Counted from the stretch's first letter, positions 21,153 through 60,698 are shown. The stretch is DNA of 64,000 nt from Holophagae bacterium (GCA_029263455.1 JAJCXM010000020.1:186753-250752), one strand, 5' to 3'. Numbers and translations: made by a program. The notes: generated from the letters alone by a model not told the origin.

Positions 21153-21701
21153 ATGGTCTGGTGGAGATGGTTTCCGCTAAATGTCATCGACTTTAGCGTC
21201 ATTCTGTTGATTTTGTTGGTCCTTGAACCGGGAAGTTTTAGCGTTAATAGTCTCGCCGCTGATGCGGTGAATTGGAGTTGGTTACCTCATTTTAACGGCT
21301 TGATGAATCTGGTCATTTGCTCGTTACTAACTGCAGGATATCTGGCTATACGGCGCGGAAACAAAACGCAGCACCCTAAATGGATGGTGACAGCTTGTGT
21401 CTTTGGAGCTATTTTTCTGGTTGGTTATATATTGCAAACCGTCATGCTGGGGCATCAGAAATTCCCCGGAGATGACTGGGTGCGCGTCTTCTTTTTGACG
21501 GTGCTCACAAGTCATACAATCCTAGCCGTTTTAGTGGTTCCATGCATTTTTGTAGTTTTGCGTCTTGCCATGCGAGGCGCCTTTGAAAAACATAAACGAT
21601 TTGCGCGTGTCACATTAGCGATTTGGGTATATGTCTCTGTGACAGGTTTGTATATTTACCTGATGAATAATCACGTGCGTCCAGCTGAATGGCACCCTTA
21701 G
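21153..21701 (+). CDS. DUF420-family membrane protein
   Basis: 182 aa with four predicted TM helices and conserved His positions. 'YLAIRRGNKTQHPKWM', 'GDDWVRVFFLTVLTSHTILA' and 'HKRFARVTLAIWVYVS' match the DUF420 pattern. Confidence 0.5.
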   Translation: MVWWRWFPLNVIDFSVILLILLVLEPGSFSVNSLAADAVNWSWLPHFNGLMNLVICSLLTAGYLAIRRGNKTQHPKWMVTACVFGAIFLVGYILQTVMLGHQKFPGDDWVRVFFLTVLTSHTILAVLVVPCIFVVLRLAMRGAFEKHKRFARVTLAIWVYVSVTGLYIYLMNNHVRPAEWHP

Positions 21702-28600: not shown

Positions 28601-30974
28601 CTTCCTCGGATTGGATCGATTCGAGCCGTCTTTTGATGCCTTGCACTATTCTTTCGCTAGCCTGAAAAACGCCCTGCACTTGCTGGTTGCGTTTTTCCAA
28701 TAAGCCGAAACGTCGATTTTCAAATGCGGTTATCAACTCTTCGCGCCGTTCCGCGAGAATGACTAAAAAACGAGTGCTGTCAGCAAACCGTGTTTCCATT
28801 TCCTCGAGATGCATGATCAAACGATTTAGGTTTTGGTCACAGCTTTCGGGGTTATCGGCGGCTTCGATGAGATGGGTCAGATTCTGTTGGAATAGATTGA
28901 GTTGAGCGGCAAAAGCTACTTGGTTTTCGCTTTCGGAAAATGCTTGAAGGCTTTGCTTGAGGCGAGCCTGAAAGTGGTTGAGCTTCTGGAAAAAGAGCGT
29001 GAGATGTTCGAGGATGGCACTTATTTGAGTGGCGTCCTCGACTTCAATGCGGTTGAGGATATCGAGCAGTAACTCAAGATCGGCGGTAAGTTGGTAACCG
29101 CGCTTTTCCAATTCGCGGCCTTCAGCGGCTTTGTTGATGTTGGTGAGCTCTTGGTCCAGATCATTGAGTTGATTGGCGTAAGGGTCAAGCGCCGAATCGC
29201 TGAGCAAGAAGGTAACGAGTAGACTTGTTGCTTCCTGAATTGCATGGGTTGCCTTTTCATTCAATCCAGCCAAATGTTCGAGATCCATATAAGGCTTTTC
29301 GCGATGACTTTCAATGGCACCCTTTGCCTGCCTCAAGTCGGTTAATACCGACAAGAAAGCGCTTACGTCTGGCATCGGAGCGCGCGTCCTGTCGATGGCG
29401 CCTTTTACAAGTTTCTCTAACGAGCCTGAATGTCGTTTGGCATCTCGTTGGTAAGCCAGCACCTTTTCATAGACTTCGATGGCTTGCTGCGATGTCGACC
29501 GTATTTCTTTGAGAGGACCTATTAAATCAATCTCGGACTGTTGTATCCAATGAAAGGCTTCTAACGTTTGGTCGACCATCTTGACGAGGTCACGAAAAAA
29601 GGATTCATGCAGTTGGGCGGAGCGAACGACCTTTATTAGTTCGTTTGATTCGCCCAGGAATCGGACCAGGTCGCGGTTGCCAATTTTGGTTATCATCGGA
29701 TCGTCGCCCGATTGGGCTACGGCAGGTTGACGGTTGTAAGGCGTATTCCAAATTTGGATCGCATGGTGTTTTTGCGGTTCGTCGTCAGCGCGAAAGAAAA
29801 GTAACTGGCCATCTTCAAATAGTGAATAGCCATGGCATTGAATGGGATTGCCCATCTCGGCCGCAATGAGGTTGTAAGACATCAATACGTAGACGCCGAT
29901 TTGTGGCTGAAAGAACACATACAGGTAGTCTTCTCCGTTTGGTGCTGATATCTTTCGCTCGAACTTTAAGCCTCGTATTTGGTTCTCGAAAACGCGCAAA
30001 TTGCCATTGATAGAATAGGTGCCACTGGAAAACACAAGTCCGGAATCGCTAGGCAAAAGTAGACAGCAATCCGCCATTCCATCTGCCCTATGCACCGTCT
30101 TGAGCTTTTCGTTGAATATGAAATAACGATCTGACTTTTCCTGGAATGGTCTGATCTTGAGAAAGATGAGGTGCCCAAAAATGGCGTAGCGAATGTCTGC
30201 GTCATCTAAGGTCTGGTCATGTTGTTCTACCGGCTCGGTGTAGATTCCGGCACCCGATTCCGTGTTGTCTTCCACTTTGATCGTCAGGTCGCCGCCGATT
30301 GTTTCGACGAAAACCCGATCCTCAATGGATACGTGTGGGTGAAGTCCACTACTATGGGAATCACGCGTTGTTCGGGTCCACTGAAAATCGAATTGATTGG
30401 GATAGACGAACTCGTGATCGCTGCGGTTATCCACATATTTCAGTTGGTCGCCTTCGTGAACCCATTTAAATGTTTTGAGTTCTTGGCCTTCCAGACTTAC
30501 CTGAAAAACCATAAACAGGTAGGGTCCCACTATTGAAAACTTATAGAAGCGGGTGTGTTTGTAGTATTTGTAAAGGCTCTTGAAGTCGGCTTGAAAACGA
30601 TCTGACGCAATTAAATTCAAGTCATCTTGAAGCATAATGCTGCCATCCCAGCGATGGATGGAGAAGACGTCTTCAAGATTCGTTTCTGTCTTTAGACCAA
30701 ATCTGACGTTGAAGCCAAACAGGAAGTGATGCCCAAGAGCCACCATATCGATAGGCACACAATTGTGCTCAGATATGATGTGCTCTGTTGTCACTAATTG
30801 GCTTGGCTGACTGCCAAACGTTGATTTACGTCGTGTATTAAGCTCAGTCAACCCTACATTGAATTGATCGCTCTGTTGAGTTAGCCGTTTCCGTATGGTC
30901 TCGAAAGTGGACTGGTCCCATGCTGAACCGGTTGGACTTTGTGCGGGCTCCATGCAATATCCTTCTTCACACAA
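25629..30974 (-). CDS. Giant (1781 aa) protein with a single MoxR/midasin-type AAA+ ATPase domain, long central coiled-coil region and a beta-rich N-terminal domain
   Basis: Walker A 'LLLVSPPGYGKTTLIEYIA', Walker B 'VMIYLDDIQ', sensor-1-like 'VCVVMAGNPYTESGARFQIPDMLANRADTYNL' (compare MoxR 'ATQNP...LPEAQLDRF'). These lie at about aa 1250-1440. Before them is roughly 500 aa of heptad-rich, Q/E/L-rich sequence. No VWA or nuclease motif seen. It is the last gene of the NfeD-flotillin operon. Confidence 0.75.
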   Translation of the reverse strand: MCEEGYCMEPAQSPTGSAWDQSTFETIRKRLTQQSDQFNVGLTELNTRRKSTFGSQPSQLVTTEHIISEHNCVPIDMVALGHHFLFGFNVRFGLKTETNLEDVFSIHRWDGSIMLQDDLNLIASDRFQADFKSLYKYYKHTRFYKFSIVGPYLFMVFQVSLEGQELKTFKWVHEGDQLKYVDNRSDHEFVYPNQFDFQWTRTTRDSHSSGLHPHVSIEDRVFVETIGGDLTIKVEDNTESGAGIYTEPVEQHDQTLDDADIRYAIFGHLIFLKIRPFQEKSDRYFIFNEKLKTVHRADGMADCCLLLPSDSGLVFSSGTYSINGNLRVFENQIRGLKFERKISAPNGEDYLYVFFQPQIGVYVLMSYNLIAAEMGNPIQCHGYSLFEDGQLLFFRADDEPQKHHAIQIWNTPYNRQPAVAQSGDDPMITKIGNRDLVRFLGESNELIKVVRSAQLHESFFRDLVKMVDQTLEAFHWIQQSEIDLIGPLKEIRSTSQQAIEVYEKVLAYQRDAKRHSGSLEKLVKGAIDRTRAPMPDVSAFLSVLTDLRQAKGAIESHREKPYMDLEHLAGLNEKATHAIQEATSLLVTFLLSDSALDPYANQLNDLDQELTNINKAAEGRELEKRGYQLTADLELLLDILNRIEVEDATQISAILEHLTLFFQKLNHFQARLKQSLQAFSESENQVAFAAQLNLFQQNLTHLIEAADNPESCDQNLNRLIMHLEEMETRFADSTRFLVILAERREELITAFENRRFGLLEKRNQQVQGVFQASERIVQGIKRRLESIQSEEEINTFLASDLMVEKLHSLVDKLRAFGDEVRAEEIDARFKATRNDALRQWRDKRDLYNADNSIRLGKHTFSTQSFALDVSLVQVQKKWGVQVTGTQFFEQIEDQQLIDFQEVWQQESAIESESLYAGCVLAHQVLTANAQATEPDWPKLVDQYLKDHALSGYVKGVHDQDAAKIASALWQCKQDLGSLVFSPETRGRVCYAWHFLVKDEDRQELLQSSAAFQALRLQPTKGIPAYFLQQCHEALVDCQSFVGAIEEAAQFLGRALLHQSFASVSQAAFDAALNFKLALKNQGRGEAFLKSVSSLANQQVTKWELCLGWLNRFDVHEPLRDEVAAMLLSPIESWIPNHTSERFEVSGLAGNHSTLQAGVLSTGYRQLVAQLRDHCGRINDLFNRFQQRKKEIISQWQNQLKLDRFRPRVLTSFVRNRLIDTVYLPMVGDNLAKQIGASGDQKRTDLMGLLLLVSPPGYGKTTLIEYIADRLGLVFVKINGPSIGHAATSLDPAEAPHASAREEIEKLNLAFQLGDNVMIYLDDIQHCNPELLQKFISLCDAQRRIEGVWKGESVSYDLRGRKVCVVMAGNPYTESGARFQIPDMLANRADTYNLGDVIGGEFDAFKRSYVENCMTSNQTLAQIARSYPQDIHHLLDVAEGRDEFDPSKVSGDYASTLVEDAVRVARKLIYVRECLLKVNSAYMESAAQADEYRTEPAFKLQGSYRNMNKISEKVLAITDDAELDAILLDHYENEAQTLAKGTESNMLKFRELMGWQSDEQVKRWQDIKKDYARNAMFRGSGENDSVAQMLTQMVLFQEGLERIGKALRVGVRALQKPAPEFPKQIESQWSEPQWQELLNLVRQLAPQEDSEFVVDKETGLPSGFLERHGFNVKKLGGSHFEIRRHKGVPVDLNARGTQLSYEVDLGQLLEQESEQLIKQLRSLNRRIYPVSFSAKGIKNGGHSLKLQVKVEKADMNGLKWLSVFDALQKASDYATKILQSIK

Positions 30975-40824: not shown

Positions 40825-43326
40825 TCATTGTCGCTGGTTCAACATGTCTGCTACCTGTATTGCCGCAGGGGTCTGTGTAGAAGATAGCTGACTCGTAAGC
40901 TGATCCATTTCAGGGATACTAGGATCCAATGCCCTCCATGCCTGAAATGACGATATCGCATCTTGCGATTGGTTCAATCTGGCATAGGCAAGGATTAGAC
41001 GGGGATATTCTGATTTCATTTCTGGTCGGTCTCGGATGACTGCCGCTAACCAGTCAGCTAACAATTGGTCCTTGCCTTGCAATTCCAAGATGACTGCTTT
41101 GTAGCTTAGCGTGTCTGTTAAGTTAGGATCGATCTCAATCAGTGTTTCCGTGTGTTTCATGGCTTTTGGATATTGCTTGTGTGCTATCAGCAACTTGATG
41201 TAATTCAAAGTTGTTCTGACGTACTCAACGTGTGATGCTCCAACGCTGGGTTCTAGGATGCTAAGCGCTTGTTGATAAAGAGATTCGGCTGCCGAGAAGT
41301 GGCCCATTCGCCGTTGTACATTGGCCAAATTGTTGAGCGACATGGCCACATCGACGTGTTCAGGACCCAATACCTTAACCTGGCGTTGATAGGTGTCTTG
41401 ATACCAGCGTTGTGCTTCCTCATAGGCGCGTTGTGCATAACTGACCGCACCAATATTATTGGCTGATAGAAGGGTTTGCTGATGATCGGGTCCTAGTACA
41501 CTCATACGCGAAGCATATGCTTGGCGGTATATCCGCTCTGCTTCAGGCAGTTGACCGTCTGCAAATAGTGCGTTGGCCAAATTGTTCAGCGTCTCGATCG
41601 TGTCAGGGTGGTGTTTGCCGAGCACTTTCTCACGCCGAGCAAGCACCTCGCGATAGATTCTTTCTGCGTCTTGTAATTGGTCTCGTCGCCTTAGCAAATT
41701 TGCTAGCTGATGTTGAGAATACAGTGTGTCTTGATGGTCAGCACCAAGGATACGGATTTGGTTCTTTAGGTTTACGCGTAACATGGACTCGGCTTCAATA
41801 ATACGATCCGCTCTGTAGATCGCGTGCGCACACAGGGTGGTTGCATAGAGCACGATGGGATCGTCGATGCCCATTATTTTACGGCGCTCACTGATGACGG
41901 CTCGCGCTAGATCCTCAGCTAACTGGAATTGACCTTGTCGCAGTCGGATATCGGCAAGGCATAGTTTCGTATCAAGCGTCTCGAGGTGCTCGGCGCCCAT
42001 GAGCCTAAGTTGGCTTGTAAGTGCCGCTTCTAGCATTTCTTCTGCTCGTTCATAGTCACCGAGCGCTGTAAACGTTTTACCAAGTGTCCGTTGAACGCGG
42101 GCTTTAAGTTCAGGTTGGTCCTCAAAAAATGAATCGAGCCTTTGGGCTTGTGTTTCTAAAACCTGGCTCATTCTGATTTGGCGACCATCATGCCTTGGAT
42201 CGGGCGACGTCAATAACTGTTCCAAAAAGGCGTTGATGGTTCGGTTCTGCTCGGATTCGAGCTGTAACTGCTTAGCGGAAGCTTTGACTTGGATGAGACT
42301 GTAAATGGTCATCGTCGTAGCCGTAAAGAGAGCCAAGGTCATCAACAAGCCAGTTAGGACCCCAAATCGATGGCGTTGGGTGAATTTCTTGATGCGATAG
42401 GTGCGTGAGTGAGGACCCGCCGAGACCGGCTCGTTGCGTAATAAGTGTCGAATGTCAGCTGCGAAATCGGCAACGGATTCGTAGCGCCCGTTCATATCTC
42501 GTGCTAACGCTTTGACGGCGATCCAGTCCAGCTCACCCTTGAGTTCCTTTAATAGGCTAGCAGGGTCGGTGCGACGAAAAATCGCGATGTCGCTAGCGGA
42601 ATCGCCTAAAGAGAGAAGTCTCTGGCTAGGACATGGCGGATCTTCATCAAGCACATGTTTGATATATGAAAAAGCAGATTTTGCTCGGAGATCGAAGGGG
42701 AGATGGCCAATTAATAGTTCGTAGAGAATCAAGCCGAGCGAGTAGATGTCCGTGCGCACGTCGACAGTTTGACCGGCCGCTTGTTCTGGACTCATGTAGA
42801 AAGGGGTCCCGATCATTTGACCATCTTGCGTCATCTCACCCTTATTGCTGAGATCTTTGGCCAGCCCAAAGTCGATGATCTTGATTTTGTAATTGCCGTT
42901 CTCCTTGAATCCCAAGATGTTGGAGGGTTTCAGATCACGGTGGATGATGCCCTTTTGATGCGCGTGCTGGACCCCGTTGCAAACGGCAAGAAAAAGTTCC
43001 AAGCGGGACCGAGCGGTAAGGTGATGTTTGTCGGCGAAATGAATAATGGGCTGTCCTGGTACGTATTCCATGGCGAAATAGGGTCGACCATCGTCCGTTG
43101 TGCCAGCATCGAGGATCGTTGCCACACACGCATGATTCATCATGGCTAGCGCATCGCGCTCTAGTTGGAAGCGTTCAAGAACGGCTTCAGACAGTTTTCC
43201 TTGATGAAGAAGTTTGAGGGCCACGATTCTGTGAACCGGATGCTTCTGTTCAGCACGGTAAACAACACCCATGCCGCCGCTCCCTAGCTCCTCAAGTACG
43301 TAATACGGCCCAATCATTTCTGCCAA
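40825..43326 (-). CDS. Serine/threonine protein kinase with TM segment and C-terminal TPR repeats
   Basis: Kinase motifs 'LGSGGMGVVYRA', 'VALK', 'HRDLKPSNIL', 'DFGLAK', 'GTPFYMSPEQ'. TM helix 'LLMTLALFTATTMTIY'. About 450 aa of TPR-like repeats ('LNNLANVQRRMGHFSAAESLYQQAL', etc.). Confidence 0.8.
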   Translation of the reverse strand: MAEMIGPYYVLEELGSGGMGVVYRAEQKHPVHRIVALKLLHQGKLSEAVLERFQLERDALAMMNHACVATILDAGTTDDGRPYFAMEYVPGQPIIHFADKHHLTARSRLELFLAVCNGVQHAHQKGIIHRDLKPSNILGFKENGNYKIKIIDFGLAKDLSNKGEMTQDGQMIGTPFYMSPEQAAGQTVDVRTDIYSLGLILYELLIGHLPFDLRAKSAFSYIKHVLDEDPPCPSQRLLSLGDSASDIAIFRRTDPASLLKELKGELDWIAVKALARDMNGRYESVADFAADIRHLLRNEPVSAGPHSRTYRIKKFTQRHRFGVLTGLLMTLALFTATTMTIYSLIQVKASAKQLQLESEQNRTINAFLEQLLTSPDPRHDGRQIRMSQVLETQAQRLDSFFEDQPELKARVQRTLGKTFTALGDYERAEEMLEAALTSQLRLMGAEHLETLDTKLCLADIRLRQGQFQLAEDLARAVISERRKIMGIDDPIVLYATTLCAHAIYRADRIIEAESMLRVNLKNQIRILGADHQDTLYSQHQLANLLRRRDQLQDAERIYREVLARREKVLGKHHPDTIETLNNLANALFADGQLPEAERIYRQAYASRMSVLGPDHQQTLLSANNIGAVSYAQRAYEEAQRWYQDTYQRQVKVLGPEHVDVAMSLNNLANVQRRMGHFSAAESLYQQALSILEPSVGASHVEYVRTTLNYIKLLIAHKQYPKAMKHTETLIEIDPNLTDTLSYKAVILELQGKDQLLADWLAAVIRDRPEMKSEYPRLILAYARLNQSQDAISSFQAWRALDPSIPEMDQLTSQLSSTQTPAAIQVADMLNQRQ

Positions 43327-50180: not shown

Positions 50181-51149
50181 TCATCCGTTCAGGAATCCTT
50201 CAGATTCGAATTCCCATTTCAAGATGTCTTGGGTGTTGTATTCTGGTCGTAGATGATGATCTGCAGAATGGGAAGCCGTCATATCCACCAACATCTCGTG
50301 GAATGCATGATCCTCGAAAAGGTGACTCAATGCTTCTGCAAGGGCGATGGCTGAGTCAAATCGTGCCATGGGATTTTCATTTAACGCTTTACTCATAATC
50401 TGTTGGAAATGCTCGGTTACGGCTGAGATTGCGGGTTTATTGAGTGTTCGCCAAGGTACGGACGCCGGGTAGGGCGAATGACCGGTGATCAATTCGTGGG
50501 CAATGACGCCAAATGAAAAGATATCTGCGCGAAAGTCCAACTTTTGTTTGGTGAACAGTTCAGGAGCAATATATCCTGGTGTGCCATAGGCTCCCTCGCG
50601 TATGACGGCTTTGGGTGGCCTGCGTGGTGTTTGACCAAATGGAACGTAGGTCGCTTCGGTTTTGGCGATACCAAAGTCCAGGATTTTGACTAGCATTTGA
50701 CCCTTCTGGTCGCGTGTAAGGATGATGTTTTGGGGGTTTAAATCACCATGTGAGACACCTAGTTGATGGACATAACTTAAGCCATCGCCAATTTGCTCTA
50801 AGATGCGGGCAGTGGCACCAAGTTCGAAACGAATACCTGTGCTTATCGCTTTGGAAAGTGCTTTACCTTCAACATATTCCATGACGATATAGGGATTTGG
50901 ATGGCTCTTGACTTCAAAAGGGATGACCAGATTAGGGTGAATCAGGTTTTGGTAAATAAGCATTTCGCGATTGAAGTGCTCACGAAAAGAATCGGTTGCT
51001 TCGTAATGCTTCAAGCATTTGATTGCGACCTTGCGATGCGAGCGGTCGCGCGCTAAATAGACGATGCCCATCGCACCTTCGCCGATGATGTGGTCGACGC
51101 GATATTCTCCTATATGTTTGGGCACGGAATCATTCATGGCTTGTGTCAT
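50181..51149 (-). CDS. Serine/threonine protein kinase (Hanks-type, atypical catalytic loop)
   Basis: 'IGEGAMGIVYLA', 'VAIK', 'SHGDLNPQNIIL' (a variant of HRDLKPxN), 'DFGIAK', 'GTPGYIAPE'. Confidence 0.75.
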   Translation of the reverse strand: MTQAMNDSVPKHIGEYRVDHIIGEGAMGIVYLARDRSHRKVAIKCLKHYEATDSFREHFNREMLIYQNLIHPNLVIPFEVKSHPNPYIVMEYVEGKALSKAISTGIRFELGATARILEQIGDGLSYVHQLGVSHGDLNPQNIILTRDQKGQMLVKILDFGIAKTEATYVPFGQTPRRPPKAVIREGAYGTPGYIAPELFTKQKLDFRADIFSFGVIAHELITGHSPYPASVPWRTLNKPAISAVTEHFQQIMSKALNENPMARFDSAIALAEALSHLFEDHAFHEMLVDMTASHSADHHLRPEYNTQDILKWEFESEGFLNG

Positions 51150-51785: not shown

Positions 51786-52874
51786 ATGAACATGTTGCTG
51801 AACTCGCCTATGGGGCGACCGAAATCGTCGTTAGAGGTCATGAACTCGCCAGGCGAAGTGCATCTCAACGATTTTTGGATCAGATTCTTGATGATTCCGT
51901 CATTTGGAATCTTCATCCCTCATGCTACCGGCCTCTTTCGCGGCACGAATCGATTCAGTATTGATCATGCATTTGGTTATCTGCTGTTTGTCTCTCTTGC
52001 GTTCCTTATTTGGCATGGTAATAGGTGGTTTCTAATCAAGCAGCGAACTCATTACGACTGGTTCCATCACCCCATTCGCAAGTTGGTGCTCCTGGTCTTT
52101 GCCAACGTCTTCTTCACGGTTCCCATCACAGTCCTTGTATTGTGGAATTGGTACTATTTCGTTGCTATGCCCAGCGATTGGAACGTGATTCGTATCGTGT
52201 GTCTGGTCAATGTCATTTGTGTCCTTTTCATCACCCATGTCTATGAAACGATCTATTTGATCCGACAACGTGAAGAAGACCAGTTACGACTTGAAAAGAC
52301 GCATCGCGCGCGTGCTGAAGCCGAACTGGAGGCACTCAAACAGCAATTGGACCCACACTTTATATTCAATAGTTTGAACACGTTGTCGCAGCTCATTGAG
52401 GAGCAATCGGAGCAGGCAGGCATCTTCACGGAGCATTTGGGAGATGTGTATCGCTATATTTTGGCCAGTAAAGATCGGGCCCTGGTTCCACTTAAGGACG
52501 AAGTCCACTTTGTGCGGTCATATCTATGCCTATTACAACTTAGATTTGGTTCCGCTATTGATATTCGATGGCCGGATCTTGAAGCTCAAAACACGTTAAT
52601 CCCACCAATGTCTCTGCAAATACTGATTGAGAATGCAGTCAAGCACAACCAACTTTCTGCCGATCGGCCACTAAAAATTGACTGTGACATTGTTGAATCA
52701 AGCATCATTGTTAGTCATCAACGAAGACCGCGCCGGAAGACACAGCCTGGAACTGGAACGGGGTTACGAAATTTAAGTGAACGTTTCCTACTGATTACGC
52801 AATCGTCAATAAGGATAGAACCAGACACTGATTACTTTCGGGTAGCTCTGCCCTTGGTTCAGATGCCAACATGA
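51786..52874 (+). CDS. LytS/YehU-type sensor histidine kinase
   Basis: The His_kinase internal region 'LKQQLDPHFIFNSLNTLSQLIEE' is the signature of LytS-family histidine kinases. It follows TM helices. The C-terminal HATPase region is short or degenerate. Overlaps the downstream LytTR response regulator gene by 4 nt. Confidence 0.65.
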   Translation: MNMLLNSPMGRPKSSLEVMNSPGEVHLNDFWIRFLMIPSFGIFIPHATGLFRGTNRFSIDHAFGYLLFVSLAFLIWHGNRWFLIKQRTHYDWFHHPIRKLVLLVFANVFFTVPITVLVLWNWYYFVAMPSDWNVIRIVCLVNVICVLFITHVYETIYLIRQREEDQLRLEKTHRARAEAELEALKQQLDPHFIFNSLNTLSQLIEEQSEQAGIFTEHLGDVYRYILASKDRALVPLKDEVHFVRSYLCLLQLRFGSAIDIRWPDLEAQNTLIPPMSLQILIENAVKHNQLSADRPLKIDCDIVESSIIVSHQRRPRRKTQPGTGTGLRNLSERFLLITQSSIRIEPDTDYFRVALPLVQMPT

Positions 52875-53614
52875 AAGTTTTAATCGTTGAGGACGAGTTA
52901 CCGGCCGCTCGTCGTTTGATTAGCATCCTAAAAAAGCATGTTGCCGCAGTGGAAGTTGTGGCTCAATTGGGTAGCGTGCAAGAAACCGTGAGTTGGTTTG
53001 AAATGCGGCCGGAAGTTGACCTCATCTTTTTGGACATCCAATTGAGTGATGGCCAGTCGTTTGATATTTTCAAACACGTTGAACCTGAGTGCCCGGTTGT
53101 CTTTACAACCGCTTATGATCGATACATGTTGGATGCCTTCCAATACAATGGCATCGATTACCTACTAAAACCCATAAAAGAACAAGACGTATTGGCGGCC
53201 CTAAAAAAGTACCGCCGGCTAAAGGGTCATTTCTTCTCGTCCTGGAAGGAATTACTGGATCAACGAGTAGTTCAAAAGCGAACGCGTGTGGTGGTCCGTG
53301 TTGCCGGTGGCTTTCAGACAATTGCAGTCCGTCAAATCGCTTATATCTTTAGTGAACACAGAATGTCATTTGTGACCACGTTTCAAGGTGCCAAATATAT
53401 GGCCGACCAAAATCTCAAAGAACTTGAAGCTCAGTTAGATCCAACTTTGTTTTTTCGTGTCAATCGTAAGTATCTGGTTTGTATTAACGCCATCAAACGA
53501 TTTCGACCATTCGACCGTGGCCGGCTACTGGTTGAATTGGAGCCAGAGACACAAGACGAGCTACTGATCTCACAAGAGCGAGCACTTGCTTTCAAGTCCT
53601 GGGTTAGTCAATAG
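52871..53614 (+). CDS. LytTR-family response regulator
   Basis: Receiver domain 'MKVLIVEDELPAARRL...VDLIFLDIQLSDG...TTAYDRY'. C-terminal LytTR DNA-binding region ('IAVRQIAYIFSEHRMSFV...FFRVNRKYLVCINAIK'). Confidence 0.8.
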   Translation: MKVLIVEDELPAARRLISILKKHVAAVEVVAQLGSVQETVSWFEMRPEVDLIFLDIQLSDGQSFDIFKHVEPECPVVFTTAYDRYMLDAFQYNGIDYLLKPIKEQDVLAALKKYRRLKGHFFSSWKELLDQRVVQKRTRVVVRVAGGFQTIAVRQIAYIFSEHRMSFVTTFQGAKYMADQNLKELEAQLDPTLFFRVNRKYLVCINAIKRFRPFDRGRLLVELEPETQDELLISQERALAFKSWVSQ

Positions 53615-53642: not shown

Positions 53643-55751
53643 TTATTGTGGCGCGGCAGTCGGCAATGGTTGGCCAGCCGCCCATTTGACATCGGTCTTA
53701 TCGTGGTAGGCATGGCAAGTGAGGCAGCTACGACGAACCCCACCGGGCTCATGGCAGCCTTTGCAGGTGTCGATATTGACAGGCGCAAAGTTGGACAATC
53801 TTTTGTCATCGGTTGTATAAAAGCTATCCAAGAATTCGCTATCGGGATCAGTTATGTGGCAGGTAGCGCAAGCTAACGCGGATCCACCGACATGGGGACC
53901 ATGGTCAAAGTGGGTTAGTGCGTGCGTTGTCTTTTTTGTTTTGGGCTGCCAGGTGATTTGTGATCCATTTTCTGACTCTCGCACCCCGTGACATTTGATG
54001 CAGGCGCCTGGACTCTTCTCGGAGAATAGCTTCTTTAGACTTTTCGGATCCCGATCGTGAGCTAATAGTTCGAGCCAAGATTTGATAAACAAATCACGAT
54101 GCACTGCTGGGCGGTAATAAAGGCCTTCATTACGTTGATACCATCCGCCTTCGGCCACCCAATCGCTGGACTGTGCCGGCGCAGGACTTTGGTTGGTTTC
54201 AGTGACGTTCGATAAGTCCGGGTCAAGTAAATCGCCACCAAGGATGTCGTCGCTAAGATCAGAATCTCCAAGGAGGTCGTCACTGAGAAGATCACCTAGA
54301 TCGTCGCCGCCCAAGATACTATCGTTTTCTAAGGGTTTTGCGATGTCGCTCTTTGCTGTTTTGTTTGCCGGTACTGGCGCCGCGGCTGGAAGTTGTTTAC
54401 CTTGTTTCCATAGCTCCATCTCCGACTCTAAACGTGGAAACCAATCCGCTGCCGCTTCTTTGAAACTGGCCTCAGGTAAACCGCCAAAGAAGGTGGGATC
54501 AAGCGTATTTGGTCCATTCCTAAACGCAAGATGACCCTGTTGTTGTATATCAAATGTTGTTTTCTTTATTTTCAAAGCTACACGTTGAATAGCCTTGAGT
54601 TCTTCATCATCAGCGTCCAATAAATCTAACAGGTCTATGCTGACCCATACTTTCAAATCTTCCTCTGAAACGTCAACCATGCTTCGTTGAAAAGGACTCA
54701 TGGTTAAGTCGCTGTAGGGTGGCCAGTCGCCAACGTTAAAACCTTTCTCCTCTAAAGTTTCAATATCCAGACCTGGCGCTGACCAAACCAACAATCCAGG
54801 TTCACCCGATTGTGAAAGACCCTTGATGTCTTGCGCATGGCAGGAAACACAGCTTTTATCAAAAGTAATGGTACCCATAGCACCTGAATCGATTGTTTGG
54901 TGGCAACTTAGACAGTCGAAGGGCGTGCTTTGTTCCGGGAAATGTTTGTTCTCGTGCAAAACATGATCAAAAGCCACGCTTGTAAATTCGGAGTAGGGGT
55001 AGTCGGTAAAACTAGGGTGATCGGAATTGAAATCATCGATTTTGGTTTGGTGACAAGCATCGCAGGTCGTTTCACTTACATCGCGCGGGTCATGTTGACG
55101 GCCGCGATGATCGACGTGACAAGTAGCACAGGCCAGTTTTGCGTGCTTGGTCCCGCGCCAGCGTGTCTCCGGCTCTTGAGAGAGAAATTGATCCGACAAG
55201 CTGTGTACGGCAAAGGAATGGGTACCCAGATCGTGACAACGCAAACATTTCTGACCGTCATGTATGGCATTTGAATTGAGCCCATTCAATAGTGCGGCCT
55301 GAAATCCACCGTCCATGGTGCTGTGGCAAGATTGGCAGTTGGATTCGATATCGGCATGCACGGAACTCAAGGGTCCGGGCGAAATAAACGCTAAACCAAA
55401 GCCAGCTGCCATGATAACAACGAAGGCCAATAGTGTCGTTGCGATCGCGCCCCAAACCAGACGACCGCGCTTTGCTCGCATACTTAATTCTGGTTGGCAC
55501 ACTGGGTTTGGTAAACAGCATGTTCCATCTGGATTGGGTCCTTTTTCACAGGGACCGCCCGCAGGTGATGAGCGCGCACAGAGGTAGCGGTAACCTTTCA
55601 TCTTAGGCTGACAGGCAAAGCCGCCTGGACAAACGCCCCGGTGATTGGGACCCTTGAAACAGGGTTCGCCTTCCCGTTTCCGTCCGCAAACCCACGTCCT
55701 GTCGGGACGTTCGTAAGGAAAGTCACGGTGTTTAAGCGACTGTAATTTCAC
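53643..55751 (-). CDS. Decaheme c-type cytochrome with duplicated Cys-rich N-terminal cytoplasmic module and one TM helix
   Basis: Ten CxxCH motifs (CQSCH, CLRCH, CATCH, CDACH, CLSCH, CVSCH, CIKCH, CATCH, CKGCH, CLTCH). The N-terminal roughly 95 aa holds two copies of 'C-x7-PC-x-KGPN-x3-C-x5-CQP' before the TM helix ('LVWGAIATTLLAFVVIMAAGFG'). Confidence 0.75.
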   Translation of the reverse strand: MKLQSLKHRDFPYERPDRTWVCGRKREGEPCFKGPNHRGVCPGGFACQPKMKGYRYLCARSSPAGGPCEKGPNPDGTCCLPNPVCQPELSMRAKRGRLVWGAIATTLLAFVVIMAAGFGLAFISPGPLSSVHADIESNCQSCHSTMDGGFQAALLNGLNSNAIHDGQKCLRCHDLGTHSFAVHSLSDQFLSQEPETRWRGTKHAKLACATCHVDHRGRQHDPRDVSETTCDACHQTKIDDFNSDHPSFTDYPYSEFTSVAFDHVLHENKHFPEQSTPFDCLSCHQTIDSGAMGTITFDKSCVSCHAQDIKGLSQSGEPGLLVWSAPGLDIETLEEKGFNVGDWPPYSDLTMSPFQRSMVDVSEEDLKVWVSIDLLDLLDADDEELKAIQRVALKIKKTTFDIQQQGHLAFRNGPNTLDPTFFGGLPEASFKEAAADWFPRLESEMELWKQGKQLPAAAPVPANKTAKSDIAKPLENDSILGGDDLGDLLSDDLLGDSDLSDDILGGDLLDPDLSNVTETNQSPAPAQSSDWVAEGGWYQRNEGLYYRPAVHRDLFIKSWLELLAHDRDPKSLKKLFSEKSPGACIKCHGVRESENGSQITWQPKTKKTTHALTHFDHGPHVGGSALACATCHITDPDSEFLDSFYTTDDKRLSNFAPVNIDTCKGCHEPGGVRRSCLTCHAYHDKTDVKWAAGQPLPTAAPQ

Positions 55752-56590
55752 TACAAGCCGCCAGCGTTAAATGCCAAGACAAGAGCCACATGTAGCCCGG
55801 CCAGAACAATTAACGAATAAGAAAGGGGGATATGGATGAATAACCACGTGCGTAATGCCCATAGTCCGGCGTGCTGTACGTCGAGTTTATGTTTTTCGTC
55901 GGTAAGTGTTTTTAGTTTGGCGAGAATGGTTTGTTCCGTGTCATCCAGAAAGGGTTTAACATGACGAAACTCACGATTCAGCATGAATTGAACTCGGTAG
56001 GAGCCGAGCAAGTGAGACCACCGATTGCGTGGACCCTCAAAGTAATGGGCCAACCTACGATGAAAAAACTCGGCAATAGTTGTTGAATGGGTGCCGTCGA
56101 TTGAATCTAACACCAGCTGTTGGGCGTCGCGTCTCAAATTATTGGTAAATTGAGGGATGCGTTCAAAAATCAGCGTTTCGTTATGACGCGCAAGACGTGT
56201 TGGGATCGTGACCGTTAAAAACAAGCCAAGTACGCCACTCAAAAACGTGAATGCAAAGATCAGGGCCAGTGTCACCTCAAGCCCTCCTCGCGGAACCTGC
56301 CAGCGTATGTGAAACCCAAAGACTGCTAATGCTAGGAAGGCAATCCAAATATGCCAACGCATCCATGTTTTTGCTGAACCCAAGGGAATAACACTTATCT
56401 TTTTGCGCACGTTGAAAGCAAGTAGATAGACGATGAGTGTTAATAGCAGCCAGCCTGTTAGGTTAGAAGCTGGCGCCAACGATTTCTGCATAGAAATATC
56501 CCAATACCAAACGGCAGCAACCATGATTGAAAGGGCTACGCATGCCGGGCCCCACTGTCTCCAGGATGATCTTATTAGCGCCGAAACCAT
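55751..56590 (-). CDS. Integral membrane protein of the cytochrome operon (possible b-type haem/quinol-interacting subunit)
   Basis: 279 aa. Four N-terminal TM helices carry conserved His ('MRWHIWIAFLALAVFGFHIRW'), and there is one C-terminal TM. Its ends overlap both neighbouring genes. Confidence 0.45.
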   Translation of the reverse strand: MVSALIRSSWRQWGPACVALSIMVAAVWYWDISMQKSLAPASNLTGWLLLTLIVYLLAFNVRKKISVIPLGSAKTWMRWHIWIAFLALAVFGFHIRWQVPRGGLEVTLALIFAFTFLSGVLGLFLTVTIPTRLARHNETLIFERIPQFTNNLRRDAQQLVLDSIDGTHSTTIAEFFHRRLAHYFEGPRNRWSHLLGSYRVQFMLNREFRHVKPFLDDTEQTILAKLKTLTDEKHKLDVQHAGLWALRTWLFIHIPLSYSLIVLAGLHVALVLAFNAGGL

Positions 56591-58308
56591 TGTGCCAGTT
56601 CCTTGGTATTGCGCATGTCGGTACGAATTAGAGCATCATGTGGGCAAGCGTATTGGCATGCAGGACCGGTTGTTTGATCGAGACATAAGTTACACTTTGT
56701 CGCTTGTAATCGGGGTAATTCGGTGTCCAAATCGAAATGAGTCTCGCCACTTTCGTCGCCCACTTCTACCATGCGGATATTGTCGTAAGGGCAGTTGTTG
56801 GCGCAGTTCGAGCACCCAATACAGGTTGAAGTAGAGATCTCGACTTCGCCATTTAGTGCCGTGCGATGGATGGCACCCGTTGGACATCCCAACATACATA
56901 CGGGATCCACACAGTGCATGCAAGCGTTGGCCACCATCACGTGGTCAAACGTTTTGCCGTGACGTGCGAAGCGCGGATTACCGTCATGTGCCGATGCGCA
57001 TGCGCGTACACAATCATCACATCCCGTGCAGCGATTGAGGTCAATCAGCATGGTGGCCTTGCCATTGCTAACCCGCTCGCTGGCGATGAAATTCATAAAA
57101 CCTTCGTTCATAACCGAGGCTTTTTCGACATAGTCCCATGTTGATGATGTTGACTGACGCTCTGGCAGCTCGTCGGGCATGTCTTCGGCGCCTAATTGCG
57201 GCAACACCATTTGTTCAATCATTTGGGCTGGCACACGCAAGACGTTGACGTAACCCAGCGCTCTTAACGTATGCTGCAGCGCCACGTTTTTTTTTGATTT
57301 CCAACTCTTAACCAATTCTTCGAGTCCAAAAACATCACCAGTACCAAGATAAGACAAAGTACGATGACCGTGATTAATTTGCACACTCTTACGTGCGAAC
57401 CCAGCCCGAATAAGCAACAAGTCGTTGAGGTAATCGCCCTCCTGCGCGATTAACGGTTCGCGGGCAATGCGCTCAGTGTGGGATTCGCTGTCGGTGCCCT
57501 TGTATTCAGGGTACCAATCAAAGTCGCCGTAGCTCTCAAACTGCGTCGCATTGACAATTTTGTCCAGATCGACGGATTTGAGGCGACGAAACAGAGGGGA
57601 CTCTGCTAAGTGAGTTTTGAGACTGCGTTCGCGATAGATTTGATCGATATCTTCACGAAACTCCGGAGAAAAACGCCGAATATCCCGCAGTCCCTGCCAG
57701 CGTATTTCCATTACCTGGCACACATTTTCCGCAAAAATAGTGGCGGTTCGGGGCGTGCGGCTCAACGCGGCTATTTCACCGAAGAATTGGCCAGCCCGGA
57801 TGGGGATCGTTTTGTACTCATCAATGACACTGTTGACGTTGGGTAGAAAAGAGCGCAGTTCGTGCGTGTCTCGGGCAAGTCGGGTTTGAGTCTGTAGCCC
57901 CCCTGTTTGAGTTTTGACAGGATCTCGATATTCACTTTCGTCGTGGTTACGCCAAATCTGTGAGAGTGCCTGGCTCCATGACTTTCGTTTCGTTGCCTTA
58001 CGGCCCATCGCTTGTTCATCCAACTCGTGACTTAACATCACACGCACCGTGCCGCGAATAATGAAAAAAGCAGAGGTTCCGTAGTCGCCACGGCGGATGA
58101 TGATGTCGCCAGGCATATAGGTGTGCATGCGGGCGTCATCCGTGATCAGTTTTTCCAGGGGTTTTGAGGCTGGGAAACGGCTGGCGTCTATATTGGAGAA
58201 AGGTGAGATCTCCAGCACTTTTTCGACGTCCTTAAAGCGCATCTTACGCTCCAAGGAGTTTCCGAACATCGAGAATTCGAGTTTATCGTCGTGAGTGGGG
58301 ATATTCAC
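56575..58308 (-). CDS. Fusion protein: two cyclic-nucleotide-binding (cNMP) domains plus an NrfC/HybA-like four-cluster 4Fe-4S ferredoxin domain
   Basis: cNMP-like regions: 'YMPGDIIIRRGDYGTSAFFIIRGTV' ... 'GQFFGEIAALSRTPRTATIFAE', and 'LIAQEGDYLNDLLLIRAGFA...LGTGDVFGLEEL'. C-terminal Cys clusters: 'CTGCDDCVRAC', 'CMHCVDPVCMLGCP', 'CIGCSNCANNCP', 'CNLCLDQTTGPACQYACP'. Confidence 0.7.
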   Translation of the reverse strand: MNIPTHDDKLEFSMFGNSLERKMRFKDVEKVLEISPFSNIDASRFPASKPLEKLITDDARMHTYMPGDIIIRRGDYGTSAFFIIRGTVRVMLSHELDEQAMGRKATKRKSWSQALSQIWRNHDESEYRDPVKTQTGGLQTQTRLARDTHELRSFLPNVNSVIDEYKTIPIRAGQFFGEIAALSRTPRTATIFAENVCQVMEIRWQGLRDIRRFSPEFREDIDQIYRERSLKTHLAESPLFRRLKSVDLDKIVNATQFESYGDFDWYPEYKGTDSESHTERIAREPLIAQEGDYLNDLLLIRAGFARKSVQINHGHRTLSYLGTGDVFGLEELVKSWKSKKNVALQHTLRALGYVNVLRVPAQMIEQMVLPQLGAEDMPDELPERQSTSSTWDYVEKASVMNEGFMNFIASERVSNGKATMLIDLNRCTGCDDCVRACASAHDGNPRFARHGKTFDHVMVANACMHCVDPVCMLGCPTGAIHRTALNGEVEISTSTCIGCSNCANNCPYDNIRMVEVGDESGETHFDLDTELPRLQATKCNLCLDQTTGPACQYACPHDALIRTDMRNTKELAQWFRR

Positions 58309-58323
58309 ACAGGTTCCTTCTTG

Positions 58324-59313
58324 TTAAGGTGACGGCTTTCCTTTGTATGTGTCGGCTGCGGGCAGCATAGCGTCAAGTGCGGCAAAGGTACTGCCGTCAT
58401 AATTGGCGCTTAATTGACGCGCCAACTCTGCGATCTGATTTGCCGCCGCTTCCAGCTCTTCAGCGTGGTTTAGTTTCAATTCAACAGCAGTAGTTGCATC
58501 GAGCATTTGTTGGAGTTCAGGAACGGGTTGCGTCTCCAAGATCTTTTTGATCCGTAACATGGCAAGTTGTGTGCGTTTCGCCATGGCAACGGCATAGTCG
58601 GCCTTTACCGTTGCTTTGGCCGTTCCCCTTAATCCGTACTCAAGGTCTAAGGCTTGACCAACTAATAACATCATTCTTTGGCGCTCAACACTTGTGGGCC
58701 GGTTATTTTCGGGGTCGTCACTGTGCAAGAAGTTATGGCGGATTTCGCCCTGTGACCATGCCACTAATTCAAAGGCACTACCGGCGGTGTGGCCGCCCTC
58801 ATTGACGAGGCGCTCGTTTGGTACGGAATGGCATTGATAGCAATTTTGGGCAACATCGTAAAGACTTTCGGGTCGCAACATACCAAGCTGACCGGCTTTC
58901 GTAATTCGCTGAGTCCGGTGTTCGGGTGATTCTTGTTCTTTCTTTATGTCCTTGCCGCCGTAATCGTTGTGAACATTGATCCAGTCTCGAGCGGCACCGT
59001 GGCATGACTCACATGAGGTGCCCGCGATAGGCTTAACCACATCGTCCACTTTCACCGATGTAAAGTGGCAATCTAAACAATCGCTTTCTCTCTTGATGCG
59101 CTTGATACCCATTTTCTCGGCAATTTTCCTGCCCTCTTCTGAACGGGTGAGTTCGAAAAAGCTCTTATGGTGTTTCGTCTCTTTCCAGACGGCCATTTCC
59201 GATTTGTGGCATTCTCCGCATTCATCTGGGCCGACCGTCTTCTCGACGTCCATATGCTGGGCCGTGGCCCATTGGGCGAAGATACATGTGGCAATCAGAA
59301 CTGCTCGAATCAT
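58324..59313 (-). CDS. Tetraheme c-type cytochrome (periplasmic)
   Basis: Start trimmed to the ATG at 59311-59313, which follows an AGGAGGA RBS and gives the signal peptide 'MIRAVLIATCIFAQWATAQ'; the track ORF starts at 59391. Four CxxCH motifs (CGECH, CLDCH, CESCH, CYQCH). Confidence 0.7.
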   Translation of the reverse strand: MIRAVLIATCIFAQWATAQHMDVEKTVGPDECGECHKSEMAVWKETKHHKSFFELTRSEEGRKIAEKMGIKRIKRESDCLDCHFTSVKVDDVVKPIAGTSCESCHGAARDWINVHNDYGGKDIKKEQESPEHRTQRITKAGQLGMLRPESLYDVAQNCYQCHSVPNERLVNEGGHTAGSAFELVAWSQGEIRHNFLHSDDPENNRPTSVERQRMMLLVGQALDLEYGLRGTAKATVKADYAVAMAKRTQLAMLRIKKILETQPVPELQQMLDATTAVELKLNHAEELEAAANQIAELARQLSANYDGSTFAALDAMLPAADTYKGKPSP

Positions 59314-59348
59314 GGTAAGAGTCCTCCTATAGGAATTCAGGAACAGAT

Positions 59349-60698
59349 TTAGGCATCCAAAACGATATCCGACTGGGGGATGGCAATGCAAGTGAGGCAG
59401 GTTCCGTCTTCTAGGATTGCATCGGGTTGAGACAGATACTTAACTTGTCCGCTTCGAATAGCGACGCAGCAGGCACCGCAACTACCCGCGCGACAACCGG
59501 AATCGATGGGTACGCCCTGTGACTCAGCAAACTCAAGCAGAGAGCCGGCTTTGAGGCTCCATTCGGCTTTGGTTTCGGATTTTGAGAACGTGACTTGGGC
59601 CTTTATGTCGTCGCTTGCGGTGGTCGCAGACTTGGCGCTTGCGCTGGCAAAGGCTTCTTGTTTAATGTCGGCCTCAGGCACACCCCATGCTTTTAGAGCG
59701 CTTGTCATATCTTTCATGAGCGAATCAGGTCCACAAATCATGAACTGATAGTTGTTTGAGGGTAAAAGCCTTTTGAGTAACTCGATGGTGATACGCCCGT
59801 TGTGTTGGTTCTTAGCTTCCAAGGCAGGGTTTAAACCCAAGCGACTGTAACAAATGTGGAGGTGGATGTTATCGTGATGCTCGGCGACCTCGGCCAGGGA
59901 TTCGCTAAATATCTGACCGTCAAAATCGCACACACCGTAAAAAAACCACATTTCCCGTTGATGTGCTCGCCCGCCAAGACTCGCTGCGCGCAACATGCTG
60001 TATAGAGGAGTGACCCCAATACCGCCAGCTATGAAGACAACAGGTCTTGCTTCGTCGGGATCCAGTGTGAAATGACCGGATGGGGCCATCAGATCCAAAA
60101 TGTCGCCTTCGTCGATGTTGTTGTGGATGTAATTGGAAATTAAACCGTCGGGCTGATCGTCGTAACCGAAAAGGCGCTTTATCGTTACTCTATAGCTGGG
60201 CTGCACGTAGACACTACTGCCCTTCAGATCGGCTGGAGGCAGGTGAGGGGCGTCGGAAATCGAGTAACAGCGTCGAATAGGTTTATTCATTCCAGGTATC
60301 TGAAATTTGAACGTAAGGTATTGGCCAGCCAAGAATCTGGGCAGCGGCTTGCGATCATGTGGCCTTAGTTCCAATGAAATGACACTGTGTGACTCGGCGA
60401 CACGTTTTTCGACGCGAAATTTACGAAACCCTGACCATGCTTGAGGAGAGACCTGCGCGCGTTTTAAGTTAATCTCCGCCATTTCAAGTTGCTTATGCCA
60501 GATGGCACGCTCCTGGGCGAGTTTTTCCTTGAAAGCACGCATACGTAACCAGCGCTCACGTAAGCTAATGGCGAGTTGGGCCAATGCCAATAACAGCAGA
60601 GACAAAACAACGAGCTTTACCGTAACGGGATTGAAAATCCAATCGCTCATGGAGCACCAGATGAAGGCTGTCTGAATGAGGCACGAAGTCTCGTGCAC
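59349..60698 (-). CDS. Membrane-anchored FNR-family FAD/NAD(P)-binding oxidoreductase with C-terminal plant-type 2Fe-2S ferredoxin domain
   Basis: N-terminal TM ('VKLVVLSLLLLALAQLAISL'). FAD-binding 'RCYSISD' is the RxYS motif. NAD-binding 'VFIAGGIGVTPLYSML'. C-terminal 'CRAGSCGACCVAIRSG...CLTCIAIP' is a 2Fe-2S ferredoxin motif. Confidence 0.7.
   Translation of the reverse strand: MHETSCLIQTAFIWCSMSDWIFNPVTVKLVVLSLLLLALAQLAISLRERWLRMRAFKEKLAQERAIWHKQLEMAEINLKRAQVSPQAWSGFRKFRVEKRVAESHSVISLELRPHDRKPLPRFLAGQYLTFKFQIPGMNKPIRRCYSISDAPHLPPADLKGSSVYVQPSYRVTIKRLFGYDDQPDGLISNYIHNNIDEGDILDLMAPSGHFTLDPDEARPVVFIAGGIGVTPLYSMLRAASLGGRAHQREMWFFYGVCDFDGQIFSESLAEVAEHHDNIHLHICYSRLGLNPALEAKNQHNGRITIELLKRLLPSNNYQFMICGPDSLMKDMTSALKAWGVPEADIKQEAFASASAKSATTASDDIKAQVTFSKSETKAEWSLKAGSLLEFAESQGVPIDSGCRAGSCGACCVAIRSGQVKYLSQPDAILEDGTCLTCIAIPQSDIVLDA

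Follow-up and report, generated by a model that had tools for sequence, protein, structure and literature searches.

A porin-less ptdCDEFG cluster in a Holophagae bacterium and its possible role as an outward electron-transfer module with a cyclic-nucleotide-binding subunit

What kind of electron-transfer system is encoded where a membrane-tethered NAD(P)H reductase, two multiheme cytochromes, a membrane protein and a fusion of cyclic nucleoside monophosphate (cNMP)-binding domains with an iron–sulphur (Fe–S) ferredoxin lie side by side, and in which direction would it carry electrons? The question is raised by five genes at positions 53643-60698, on the minus strand, of a 64,000-nucleotide (nt) stretch of DNA from a Holophagae bacterium (GCA_029263455.1, JAJCXM010000020.1:186753-250752; hereafter the window, meaning the whole stretch). 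Judging by gene content and order, this region is almost certainly the ptdCDEFG operon, also described as PCC4 subgroup II. The explanation that we favour as a whole, with moderate confidence, is that it encodes an outward inner-membrane electron-transfer module without ptdAB.

The five co-directional open reading frames (ORFs) called in the initial annotation are all present with the same boundaries, and profile annotation with Pfam and NCBIfam confirms the domain content that had been proposed for each of them (Table 1). The genes are tightly packed: ptdE and ptdF overlap by 16 nt (56575-56590), ptdF and ptdG overlap by 1 nt (55751), and ptdD and ptdE are 15 nt apart, exactly as described before. 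The remaining gap, between ptdC and ptdD, had been given as 36 nt and becomes 35 nt if ptdD starts at ATG 59313. The longest ORF of ptdD (58324-59391, 355 amino acids (aa)) starts at TTG 59391; an AGGAGG ribosome-binding site lies upstream of ATG 59313, and the signal peptide begins there. For ptdC, translation probably begins at ATG 60650 and not at GTG 60698. An Rfam scan of the window for regulatory RNAs gave no match, and a scan of the window for promoters and terminators gave no excess over chance.

Two descriptions of this cluster, both made from sequence, allow its identity to be checked. He et al. 2017 (PMC5566968) present it as 'PCC4', in which subgroup II has a pfam13247 Fe–S gene upstream of an inner-membrane protein with five transmembrane (TM) helices, two W-x3-H-x13-H motifs (TM3 and TM5) and SGxxG on TM4. 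A 2024 preprint (bioRxiv 10.1101/2023.11.21.568154) names the operon ptdABCDEFG; there, PtdA is a pentaheme cytochrome, PtdB a porin, PtdC an FAD/NAD(P) oxidoreductase, PtdD a tetraheme cytochrome, PtdE a cNMP-binding/4Fe–4S protein, PtdF a ferric-reductase-like membrane protein and PtdG a decaheme cytochrome, and its Table S7 already includes Acidobacteriota. Five of the six defining components of ptd/PCC4-II are found in the window: (i) an FAD/NAD(P) plus 2Fe–2S redox gene directly upstream of a tetraheme gene; (ii) the tetraheme periplasmic cytochrome itself (PtdD); (iii) a gene for a cNMP plus pfam13247 Fe–S protein directly upstream of an inner-membrane protein gene; (iv) a 5-TM protein with W-x3-H-x13-H on TM3 and TM5 and SGxxG on TM4; and (v) a decaheme gene downstream of the membrane-protein gene. 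The sixth, a pentaheme PtdA and a porin PtdB in the cluster, is absent. The five products are 47% (PtdC), 51% (PtdD), 47% (PtdE), 37% (PtdF) and 26% (PtdG) identical to those of a complete Nitrospirales A–G locus (L005), which encodes 5-, 4- and 10-heme proteins.

The cluster is thus not new. By its own terms, the initial annotation would be refuted if the cluster were a known, named respiratory complex with exactly this architecture, and this largely applies, as the names PCC4 subgroup II (PMC5566968) and ptdC–G (bioRxiv 10.1101/2023.11.21.568154) already cover it. The window holds a further, porin-less member of the published ptd/PCC4-II family, and the mechanistic idea put forward earlier matches published speculation and slightly extends it. 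What is known by these names is a gene cluster read from sequence and not a characterised complex; the function of ptd, in the preprint's words, 'remains completely unknown' (bioRxiv 10.1101/2023.11.21.568154). What is new beyond the published ptd/PCC4 is (i) the four clusters predicted in PtdE; (ii) the canonical cassette of its first cNMP domain; (iii) an eight-cysteine domain in PtdG; and (iv) apparently non-marine hosts.

The five-gene arrangement is not due to chance, since its order recurs across phyla: we find it in Acidobacteriota, Verrucomicrobiota, Planctomycetota, Nitrospirota/Nitrospinota and Alpha-, Gamma- and Zetaproteobacteria. In the neighbourhoods of an Acidobacteria metagenome-assembled genome (MAG), Chthoniobacterales and Nitrospirales, the five genes stand in identical order, often beside two further genes, for a pentaheme cytochrome and a ~500-aa protein. 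The E-F-G genes are contiguous in 80 loci wherever the contig continues. Among the 38 loci that are well flanked (at least 7.5 kb on each side), 37 contain ptdC and 28 contain all seven genes A–G, while C-D-E-F-G only, as in the window, occurs in 4/38, C-E-F-G in 5/38 (by record title mostly Verrucomicrobiota MAGs) and loss of ptdC in 1/38.

The family itself is very large. Searching with PtdE gave more than 4,700 matches, the best 120 of which all combine cNMP and Fe–S domains, nearly all at ~50% identity; the closest named relative, in the Acidobacteria MAG, is 66% identical and has a syntenic neighbourhood. With one genome per species, we counted PtdE relatives in at least 597 genomes from at least 8 phyla, a set that spans Acidobacteriota, Planctomycetota, Verrucomicrobiota, Alpha-, Gamma- and Zetaproteobacteria, Nitrospinota, SAR324 and Poribacteria and includes the isolates Ca. 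Uabimicrobium amorphum, Hwanghaeella grinnelliae and Ferruginivarius sediminum. The PtdF family comprises 796 clusters (50% identity) at E <= 1e-30. Few uncharacterised multiheme systems are as widespread as ptd/PCC4. The literature describes ptd/PCC4 as marine or saline. The family seems to have a wider range. The sample labels of many relatives' genomes, as we take them, read as peat, river, groundwater or soil MAGs; therefore, it would not be confined to saline habitats.

The reading of PtdE as a protein with cNMP-binding domains stands: PF00027 (cNMP_binding) matches three stretches at 1.5e-21 (76.6 bits against a cut-off of 27.5), and in the phosphate-binding cassette of the first domain (CNB-1) both Glu178 and Arg187 are kept in 121/121 PtdE homologues, so that a cupin or another barrel, the alternative that had been raised, is not borne out. 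Thr188 (109/121) and Ala189 (112/121) are also conserved, and the cassette, of the form G-x-F-G-E-I-A-A-L-x-R-x-P-R-T-A-T, has a nearly invariant flanking motif. Such conservation suggests a real nucleotide ligand. The R-T-A-T of CNB-1 presumably resembles the cGMP (cyclic GMP)-type cassette of PKG, which is a lead and not a test. Three PtdE variants (P0019, P0054 and P0091; ~691 aa) carry an additional N-terminal FHA (phospho-Thr-binding) domain, which is consistent with the N-terminal half of PtdE being a regulatory input and gives a hint that Ser/Thr kinases feed into PtdE in some lineages.

The C-terminal part of PtdE matches PF13247 (1.3e-8) together with Fer4 and 4Fe–4S dicluster families. 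Its four ferredoxin motifs together contain 16 Cys, of which 15 are kept in 121/121 homologues and one in 120/121, and this points to four [4Fe–4S] clusters rather than two. Neither a Tat or Sec signal nor a TM segment was found in the PtdE sequence, which argues for a cytoplasmic location. Matches of its profile in the PDB include HycB3 and HycB4 of HDCR, ArrB, PsrB/NrfC, PKG and PKA-R. The AlphaFold2 (AF2) model is of only moderate confidence, with a predicted local distance difference test (pLDDT) score of 69.8, and in it the Fe–S part is poor without the clusters and the insert of CNB-1 reaches pLDDT 38-64. The fusion of cNMP and Fe–S domains had been called unusual; this is right among characterised systems, but the fusion is the invariant state of the family described above (at least 597 genomes).

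PtdF is putatively a di-heme cytochrome b of the ferric-reductase/DUF4405 type. Its four His (H80, H94, H253 and H267) are invariant in 35 homologues, and their pairing 13 residues apart on two TM helices is a trait of ferric reductases and two-heme cytochromes b. On TM4, G122 is invariant and G119 is kept in at least 90% of the 35, within L-S-G-V-L-G. No Pfam family lies above threshold for PtdF: members of the family match DUF4405 (22/35), Ni_hydr_CYTB (11/35) and Ferric_reduct (6/35) at E <= 1, the window protein scores under the cut-offs of all three, and fold searches gave no significant match to a solved ferric reductase, DUF4405 or Ni_hydr_CYTB member. The AF2 model (pLDDT 92) is all-helical, with helices at residues 2-36, 41-64, 73-94 and 103-134, a helical domain at 142-214 and a last long helix at 217-276. 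The helical insert of ~110 aa between TM4 and TM5 contains a highly conserved FERIP motif, of which Glu143 and Pro146 are invariant, and the 142-214 domain would be cytoplasmic by topology. By the positive-inside rule, H80/H253 would lie near the cytoplasmic face and H94/H267 near the periplasmic face. Two PtdE–PtdF single polypeptides (P0309, 843 aa, and P0320, 856 aa), in which the PtdE part is 43-48% identical to that of the window, are consistent with a physical E–F complex and an N-in topology of PtdF. The 16-nt overlap of ptdE and ptdF likewise speaks for a coupling of the two subunits.

The two ends of the proposed chain are PtdC and the cytochromes PtdD and PtdG. PtdC matches NAD_binding_1 (2e-15), Fer2 (5e-10), FAD_binding_6 and NAD_binding_6 in Pfam, and contains the motifs RCYS, GGIGVTP and C-x4-C-x2-C (FAD, NAD(P)H and 2Fe–2S). 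Its NCBIfam matches are the reductase half of flavohaemoprotein (2.7e-61) and the PaaE- and Hcr-type reductases, all under cut-offs. PtdD has a signal peptide, four CxxCH motifs and a match to Cytochrome_C554 (2.1e-15). PtdG has ten CxxCH motifs and matches Cytochrome_C7 and an MtrC/MtrF-like domain; its hemes are arranged as 6 + 4 CxxCH with a variable region between them, all in the periplasmic part, and exactly ten CxxCH are found in 63/64 orthologues, which range from 568 to 1317 aa. In the window, an acidic, D/L/G-rich low-complexity linker (GGDDLGDLLSDDLLGDSDLSDDILGGDLLDPDLS; residues ~470-515, ~54200-54340, minus strand) lies between heme 6 and heme 7. The TM helices of both PtdC and PtdG are flanked by positive-inside residues.

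The N-terminal domain of PtdG (~90 residues) retains eight Cys at >=80% across phyla, and its Cys4 repeats follow the pattern W-x-C-G-x5-G-x2-C-x2-G-P-x4-G-x-C-x4-8-C-x-P. By the positive-inside rule it would be cytoplasmic. Possible roles are the binding of Zn or Fe and the docking of PtdE. The accessible text of the two published descriptions (bioRxiv 10.1101/2023.11.21.568154 and PMC5566968) contains no mention of this domain.

The chain that had been proposed, from NAD(P)H through Fe–S centres and the membrane to multiheme cytochromes, remains the most economical reading of the confirmed gene content. From the gene content, motifs, conservation and synteny observed above, we infer cofactor binding, complex formation, flow direction and nucleotide control as follows. 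PtdC, held by one TM helix on the cytoplasmic face, would oxidise NAD(P)H at its FAD and pass single electrons to its [2Fe–2S] cluster, from which they would run along the four [4Fe–4S] clusters of cytoplasmic PtdE. They would then cross the membrane via two bis-His b hemes of PtdF (H80/H253 on the inner and H94/H267 on the outer side) and reach the ten c hemes of membrane-anchored PtdG. Soluble PtdD, with its four c hemes, would hand them on to acceptors in the periplasm; in genomes that have PtdA/PtdB, this outer-membrane pair could be the recipient instead. CNB-1 of PtdE would probably bind a cyclic nucleotide, tuning electron flow or subunit docking.

We lean towards an outward direction for two reasons: (i) almost every locus encodes both the NAD(P)H reductase and the cytoplasmic ferredoxin; and (ii) a low-potential donor such as NAD(P)H (~-320 mV), which is downhill to c-type hemes, and an inside-negative membrane potential favour the outward movement of electrons. 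Because outward export would dissipate reductant and membrane potential, a sensor domain on the wire makes sense. The case for real cNMP regulation of the system is evenly balanced. Only tentatively do we suggest the full form of this reading, in which a cyclic nucleotide (cyclic AMP (cAMP), cGMP or a related one) at CNB-1 switches PtdCEFG(D), a multi-subunit counterpart of NADPH oxidase or ferric reductase, and in which the porin-less form would feed a periplasmic rather than an extracellular acceptor.

Seven points weigh against an outward, nucleotide-controlled module: (i) in the second cNMP domain (CNB-2), Arg349 is kept in 118/121 homologues, but the cassette diverges, with a shifted Glu and a long insertion that extends it; (ii) no cyclase gene occurs among window ORFs of at least 200 aa; (iii) the family is present in Fe(II) and nitrite oxidisers; (iv) ptdAB are absent from the window, so the locus gives no terminal acceptor; (v) as ptdE and ptdF overlap, frameshifts could have produced the E–F fusions artificially; (vi) in the original PCC4 model, electrons flow the other way, the quinone pool receiving them from a donor outside the cell (PMC5566968); and (vii) we found no experimental follow-up on any Ptd/PCC4 protein in the literature.

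The divergent CNB-2 and the missing cyclase would fit CNB domains that are structural or degenerate, serving docking or dimerisation without a nucleotide and leaving PtdE as a ferredoxin wire and adaptor. Cyclase genes are likewise absent from the Acidobacteria MAG, Chthoniobacterales and Nitrospirales ptd neighbourhoods shown, and the conserved insert of ~70 aa that interrupts CNB-1 is the poorly modelled part of the domain. This alternative, which we consider rather unlikely, has to account for Glu178 and Arg187 kept without exception within a nearly invariant motif, as expected for a selected ligand site, and for a Pfam score far over the threshold.

Inward uptake, following the model of He et al. 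2017, would have PtdD and PtdG take up electrons from a donor in the periplasm or outside the cell, e.g. Fe(II) or Mn(II), and pass them to PtdF as a quinone-reducing cytochrome b, with PtdE and PtdC as accessories or a side branch. It fits the Fe(II) and nitrite oxidisers among the hosts, but leaves unexplained the near-constant presence in the operon of the PtdC reductase and the cytoplasmic four-cluster PtdE (37/38 well-flanked loci); moreover, no quinone-site motif was identified, and electrons bound for NAD(P)+ would have to move uphill against redox and membrane potential alike. Most hosts are MAGs of Verrucomicrobiota, Planctomycetota, Acidobacteriota and Alphaproteobacteria, groups that are not known as lithotrophic metal oxidisers. 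We therefore regard inward flow as unlikely.

A sub-case of outward flow is a chain for periplasmic catalysis (e.g. NAD(P)H-driven reduction of nitrite, NO or hydroxylamine by PtdA-like pentahemes, or deliberate superoxide or ferric reduction) rather than for respiratory or mineral extracellular electron transfer. According to the preprint, PtdA falls in the NrfA COG, PtdC resembles the reductase of the NO-dioxygenase flavohaemoprotein and ptdAB are highly transcribed in nod-expressing bacteria of oxygen-deficient zones (bioRxiv 10.1101/2023.11.21.568154); the window adds a PtdC whose best match is the reductase half of Hmp, a PtdD that matches the c554 family, a PtdA-like pentaheme gene and nnrS. 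The matches all lie under family cut-offs, neither PtdD nor PtdG has a visible catalytic-heme signature (CxxCK or other), and the PtdA-like gene is 38 kb distant at 24% identity. We regard this role as very unlikely.

If the outward, cNMP-controlled export of NAD(P)H electrons is real, PtdE would be the first Fe–S electron-transfer protein under direct second-messenger control and would represent a new output class for cNMP signalling. The system would then be a new extracytoplasmic reduction route in mostly aerobic heterotrophs and lithotrophs, with iron acquisition, reactive-oxygen/nitrogen chemistry and mineral interaction as candidate uses. The window adds one more instance, of the porin-less type, and its value is that of a clean, compact candidate for expression and not of a discovery.

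Table 1. Genes, domains and motifs of the ptdCDEFG locus (positions counted from the first nucleotide of the window)
Feature	Position (nt)	Strand	Residues	Description
ptdC	59349-60698	-		Membrane-tethered NAD(P)H:acceptor reductase, 449 aa
PtdC TM helix	60567-60623	-	26-44	N-terminal TM prediction
PtdC FNR-like FAD/NAD(P)H module	59637-60419	-		Pfam
PtdC plant-type [2Fe–2S] ferredoxin domain	59355-59594	-		C-terminal, Pfam Fer2
ptdD	58324-59313	-		Sec-secreted periplasmic tetraheme cytochrome c, 329 aa from ATG 59313
ptdE	56575-58308	-		Predicted cytoplasmic cNMP/Fe–S fusion, 577 aa
PtdE CNB-1	57619-58164	-		cNMP domain with conserved family-specific insert of ~70 aa
PtdE CNB-1 phosphate-binding cassette GQFFGEIAALSRTPRTAT	57739-57792	-		Glu178 and Arg187 kept in 121/121 homologues
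PtdE CNB-2	57193-57576	-		cNMP domain, divergent cassette
PtdE HycB/HydN/NrfC-type ferredoxin domain	56629-57051	-		Four [4Fe–4S] motifs
ptdF	55751-56590	-		5-TM inner-membrane protein, putative di-heme cytochrome b, 279 aa
PtdF TM3 motif W76-x3-H80-x13-H94	56309-56365	-		Invariant in 35 homologues
PtdF TM5 motif W249-x3-H253-x13-H267	55790-55846	-		Invariant in 35 homologues
ptdG	53643-55751	-		Bitopic decaheme cytochrome c, 702 aa
PtdG two tandem Cys4 repeats	55488-55715	-	13-88	N-terminal, before the TM helix
PtdG TM helix	55383-55454	-		Single helix, preceded by R/K residues

Elsewhere in the window, we looked for the missing ptdA and ptdB. With PtdB of the loci L003 and L005 as queries, tblastn gave no match anywhere in the window, and the sole tblastn match of PtdA is a pentaheme gene at 15272-16966 on the plus strand (24% identity, E 8e-12). 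This gene, 38 kb from the ptd genes, encodes a 564-aa secreted cytochrome with 5 CxxCH, an N-terminal CarboxypepD_reg-like domain and a hydrophobic C-terminal anchor ending in KKRVA. Its neighbours are a Ser/Thr kinase gene (14224-15162) and a gene for a Reg_prop/Y_Y_Y protein (16998-19880), with no porin gene adjacent. It may take the place of PtdA as a distant counterpart, or have nothing to do with it.

A LytS-type histidine kinase and a LytTR response regulator (51786-53614, plus strand) are convergent with ptdG, the facing stop codons being 28 nt apart. The initial annotation had pointed to this pair downstream on the opposite strand, and it is indeed present; its synteny with ptd genes is found only in the closest relative (L001/L007), i.e. 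in 1/80 genome loci. As it adjoins ptd only there, the pair is not a general feature of ptd, and we reject it as a dedicated ptd regulator in general.

Other features of the window include at least four Pkinase genes (14224-15162, 21689-22618, 40825-43326 and 50181-51149) and an NnrS-family protein (22643-23797, minus strand; PF05940, 4.5e-89) encoded ~30 kb from the ptd genes; the NnrS family is annotated in connection with nitric oxide. A 1781-aa DUF3686/AAA ATPase protein (25629-30974, minus strand), annotated as 'ATPase involved in DNA repair', adjoins ORFs of 658 aa and 214 aa without a Pfam match. Outside the window, the variant C-E-F-G cluster (L041, L042, L050-L052, L062, L066, L068, L070, L079 and L086; by record title mostly Verrucomicrobiota MAGs) lacks the tetraheme gene between C and E, and its G position is only weakly similar (bit scores 60-164). 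These loci may form a subgroup of their own whose terminal cytochrome differs.

We then compared the locus with known systems. Relative to the published ptdABCDEFG, the window encodes the same five products in the same order without adjacent ptdA/ptdB, and has the convergent LytS/LytTR pair downstream. For PtdE, the literature gives two 4Fe–4S clusters, whereas 16 Cys point to four here. The likeness to Nrf or alternative complex III that had been suggested at first does not hold, because PtdE lacks a Tat signal and is predicted to be cytoplasmic, and the 5-TM PtdF is not NrfD-like. PtdE scores 48.8 bits against the NCBIfam NrfC cut-off of 377.6, and profile searches with PtdF gave no NrfD match. 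We therefore reject this analogy, as the cluster has no Tat-exported Fe–S, NrfD-type or molybdopterin-like subunit.

By analogy, the system would work like a split NOX/ferric reductase joined to an Mtr-like cytochrome wire. With NOX, FRE/FRO and bacterial Fre-MsrQ it shares the logic of passing electrons from cytoplasmic NAD(P)H and flavin through two stacked bis-His b hemes, as predicted for PtdF, to the outside. In contrast to these, (i) ptd is split into separate polypeptides, with a 2Fe–2S and a four-cluster ferredoxin between flavin and hemes; (ii) PtdF has five TM helices and not six, and PF01794 is under threshold; and (iii) the acceptor would be a multiheme cytochrome c and not O2, Fe(III) or MsrP. 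With CymA/MtrCAB of Shewanella and the Geobacter Pcc systems it shares periplasmic deca- and tetraheme wires and, in complete ptd loci, also a porin-cytochrome pair. However, its inner-membrane entry would be a di-heme-b, Fe–S and NAD(P)H reductase assembly rather than a NapC/NirT quinol dehydrogenase, and the window has no porin. The concept of periplasmic multiheme c, membrane heme-b and cytoplasmic Fe–S subunits is also that of Hmc/Tmc/Qrc, but the ptd subunits lie under the respective cut-offs (HmcA 6.9e-5, HmcB 2.7e-9, QrcA/QrcC weak), and ptd has an NAD(P)H reductase in place of an NrfD-like or HdrD-like subunit.

The two halves of PtdE have separate counterparts. Its C-terminal 150 aa have the same four CxxCxxCxxxC-type motifs as HycB3/HycB4 (HDCR, 7qv7), HydN, FdnH/FdnI and PsrB/NrfC (E 7.8e-21 against HycB3), and its pairing with a putative di-heme b subunit recalls FdnH-FdnI. 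Unlike these four-cluster ferredoxin subunits, PtdE appears to be cytoplasmic, has neither a Tat signal nor a C-terminal TM anchor, carries two N-terminal CNBs and has no catalytic molybdopterin or hydrogenase partner in ptd. With PKA-R, PKG, CRP and HCN/CNG, CNB-1 shares the canonical F-G-E-[IL]-A-[AL]-x4-R-T-A-T cassette, while CNB-1 has its family-specific insert and CNB-2 is divergent. The output attached to these domains in PtdE is predicted to be an Fe–S wire and not a kinase, a DNA-binding domain or a channel.

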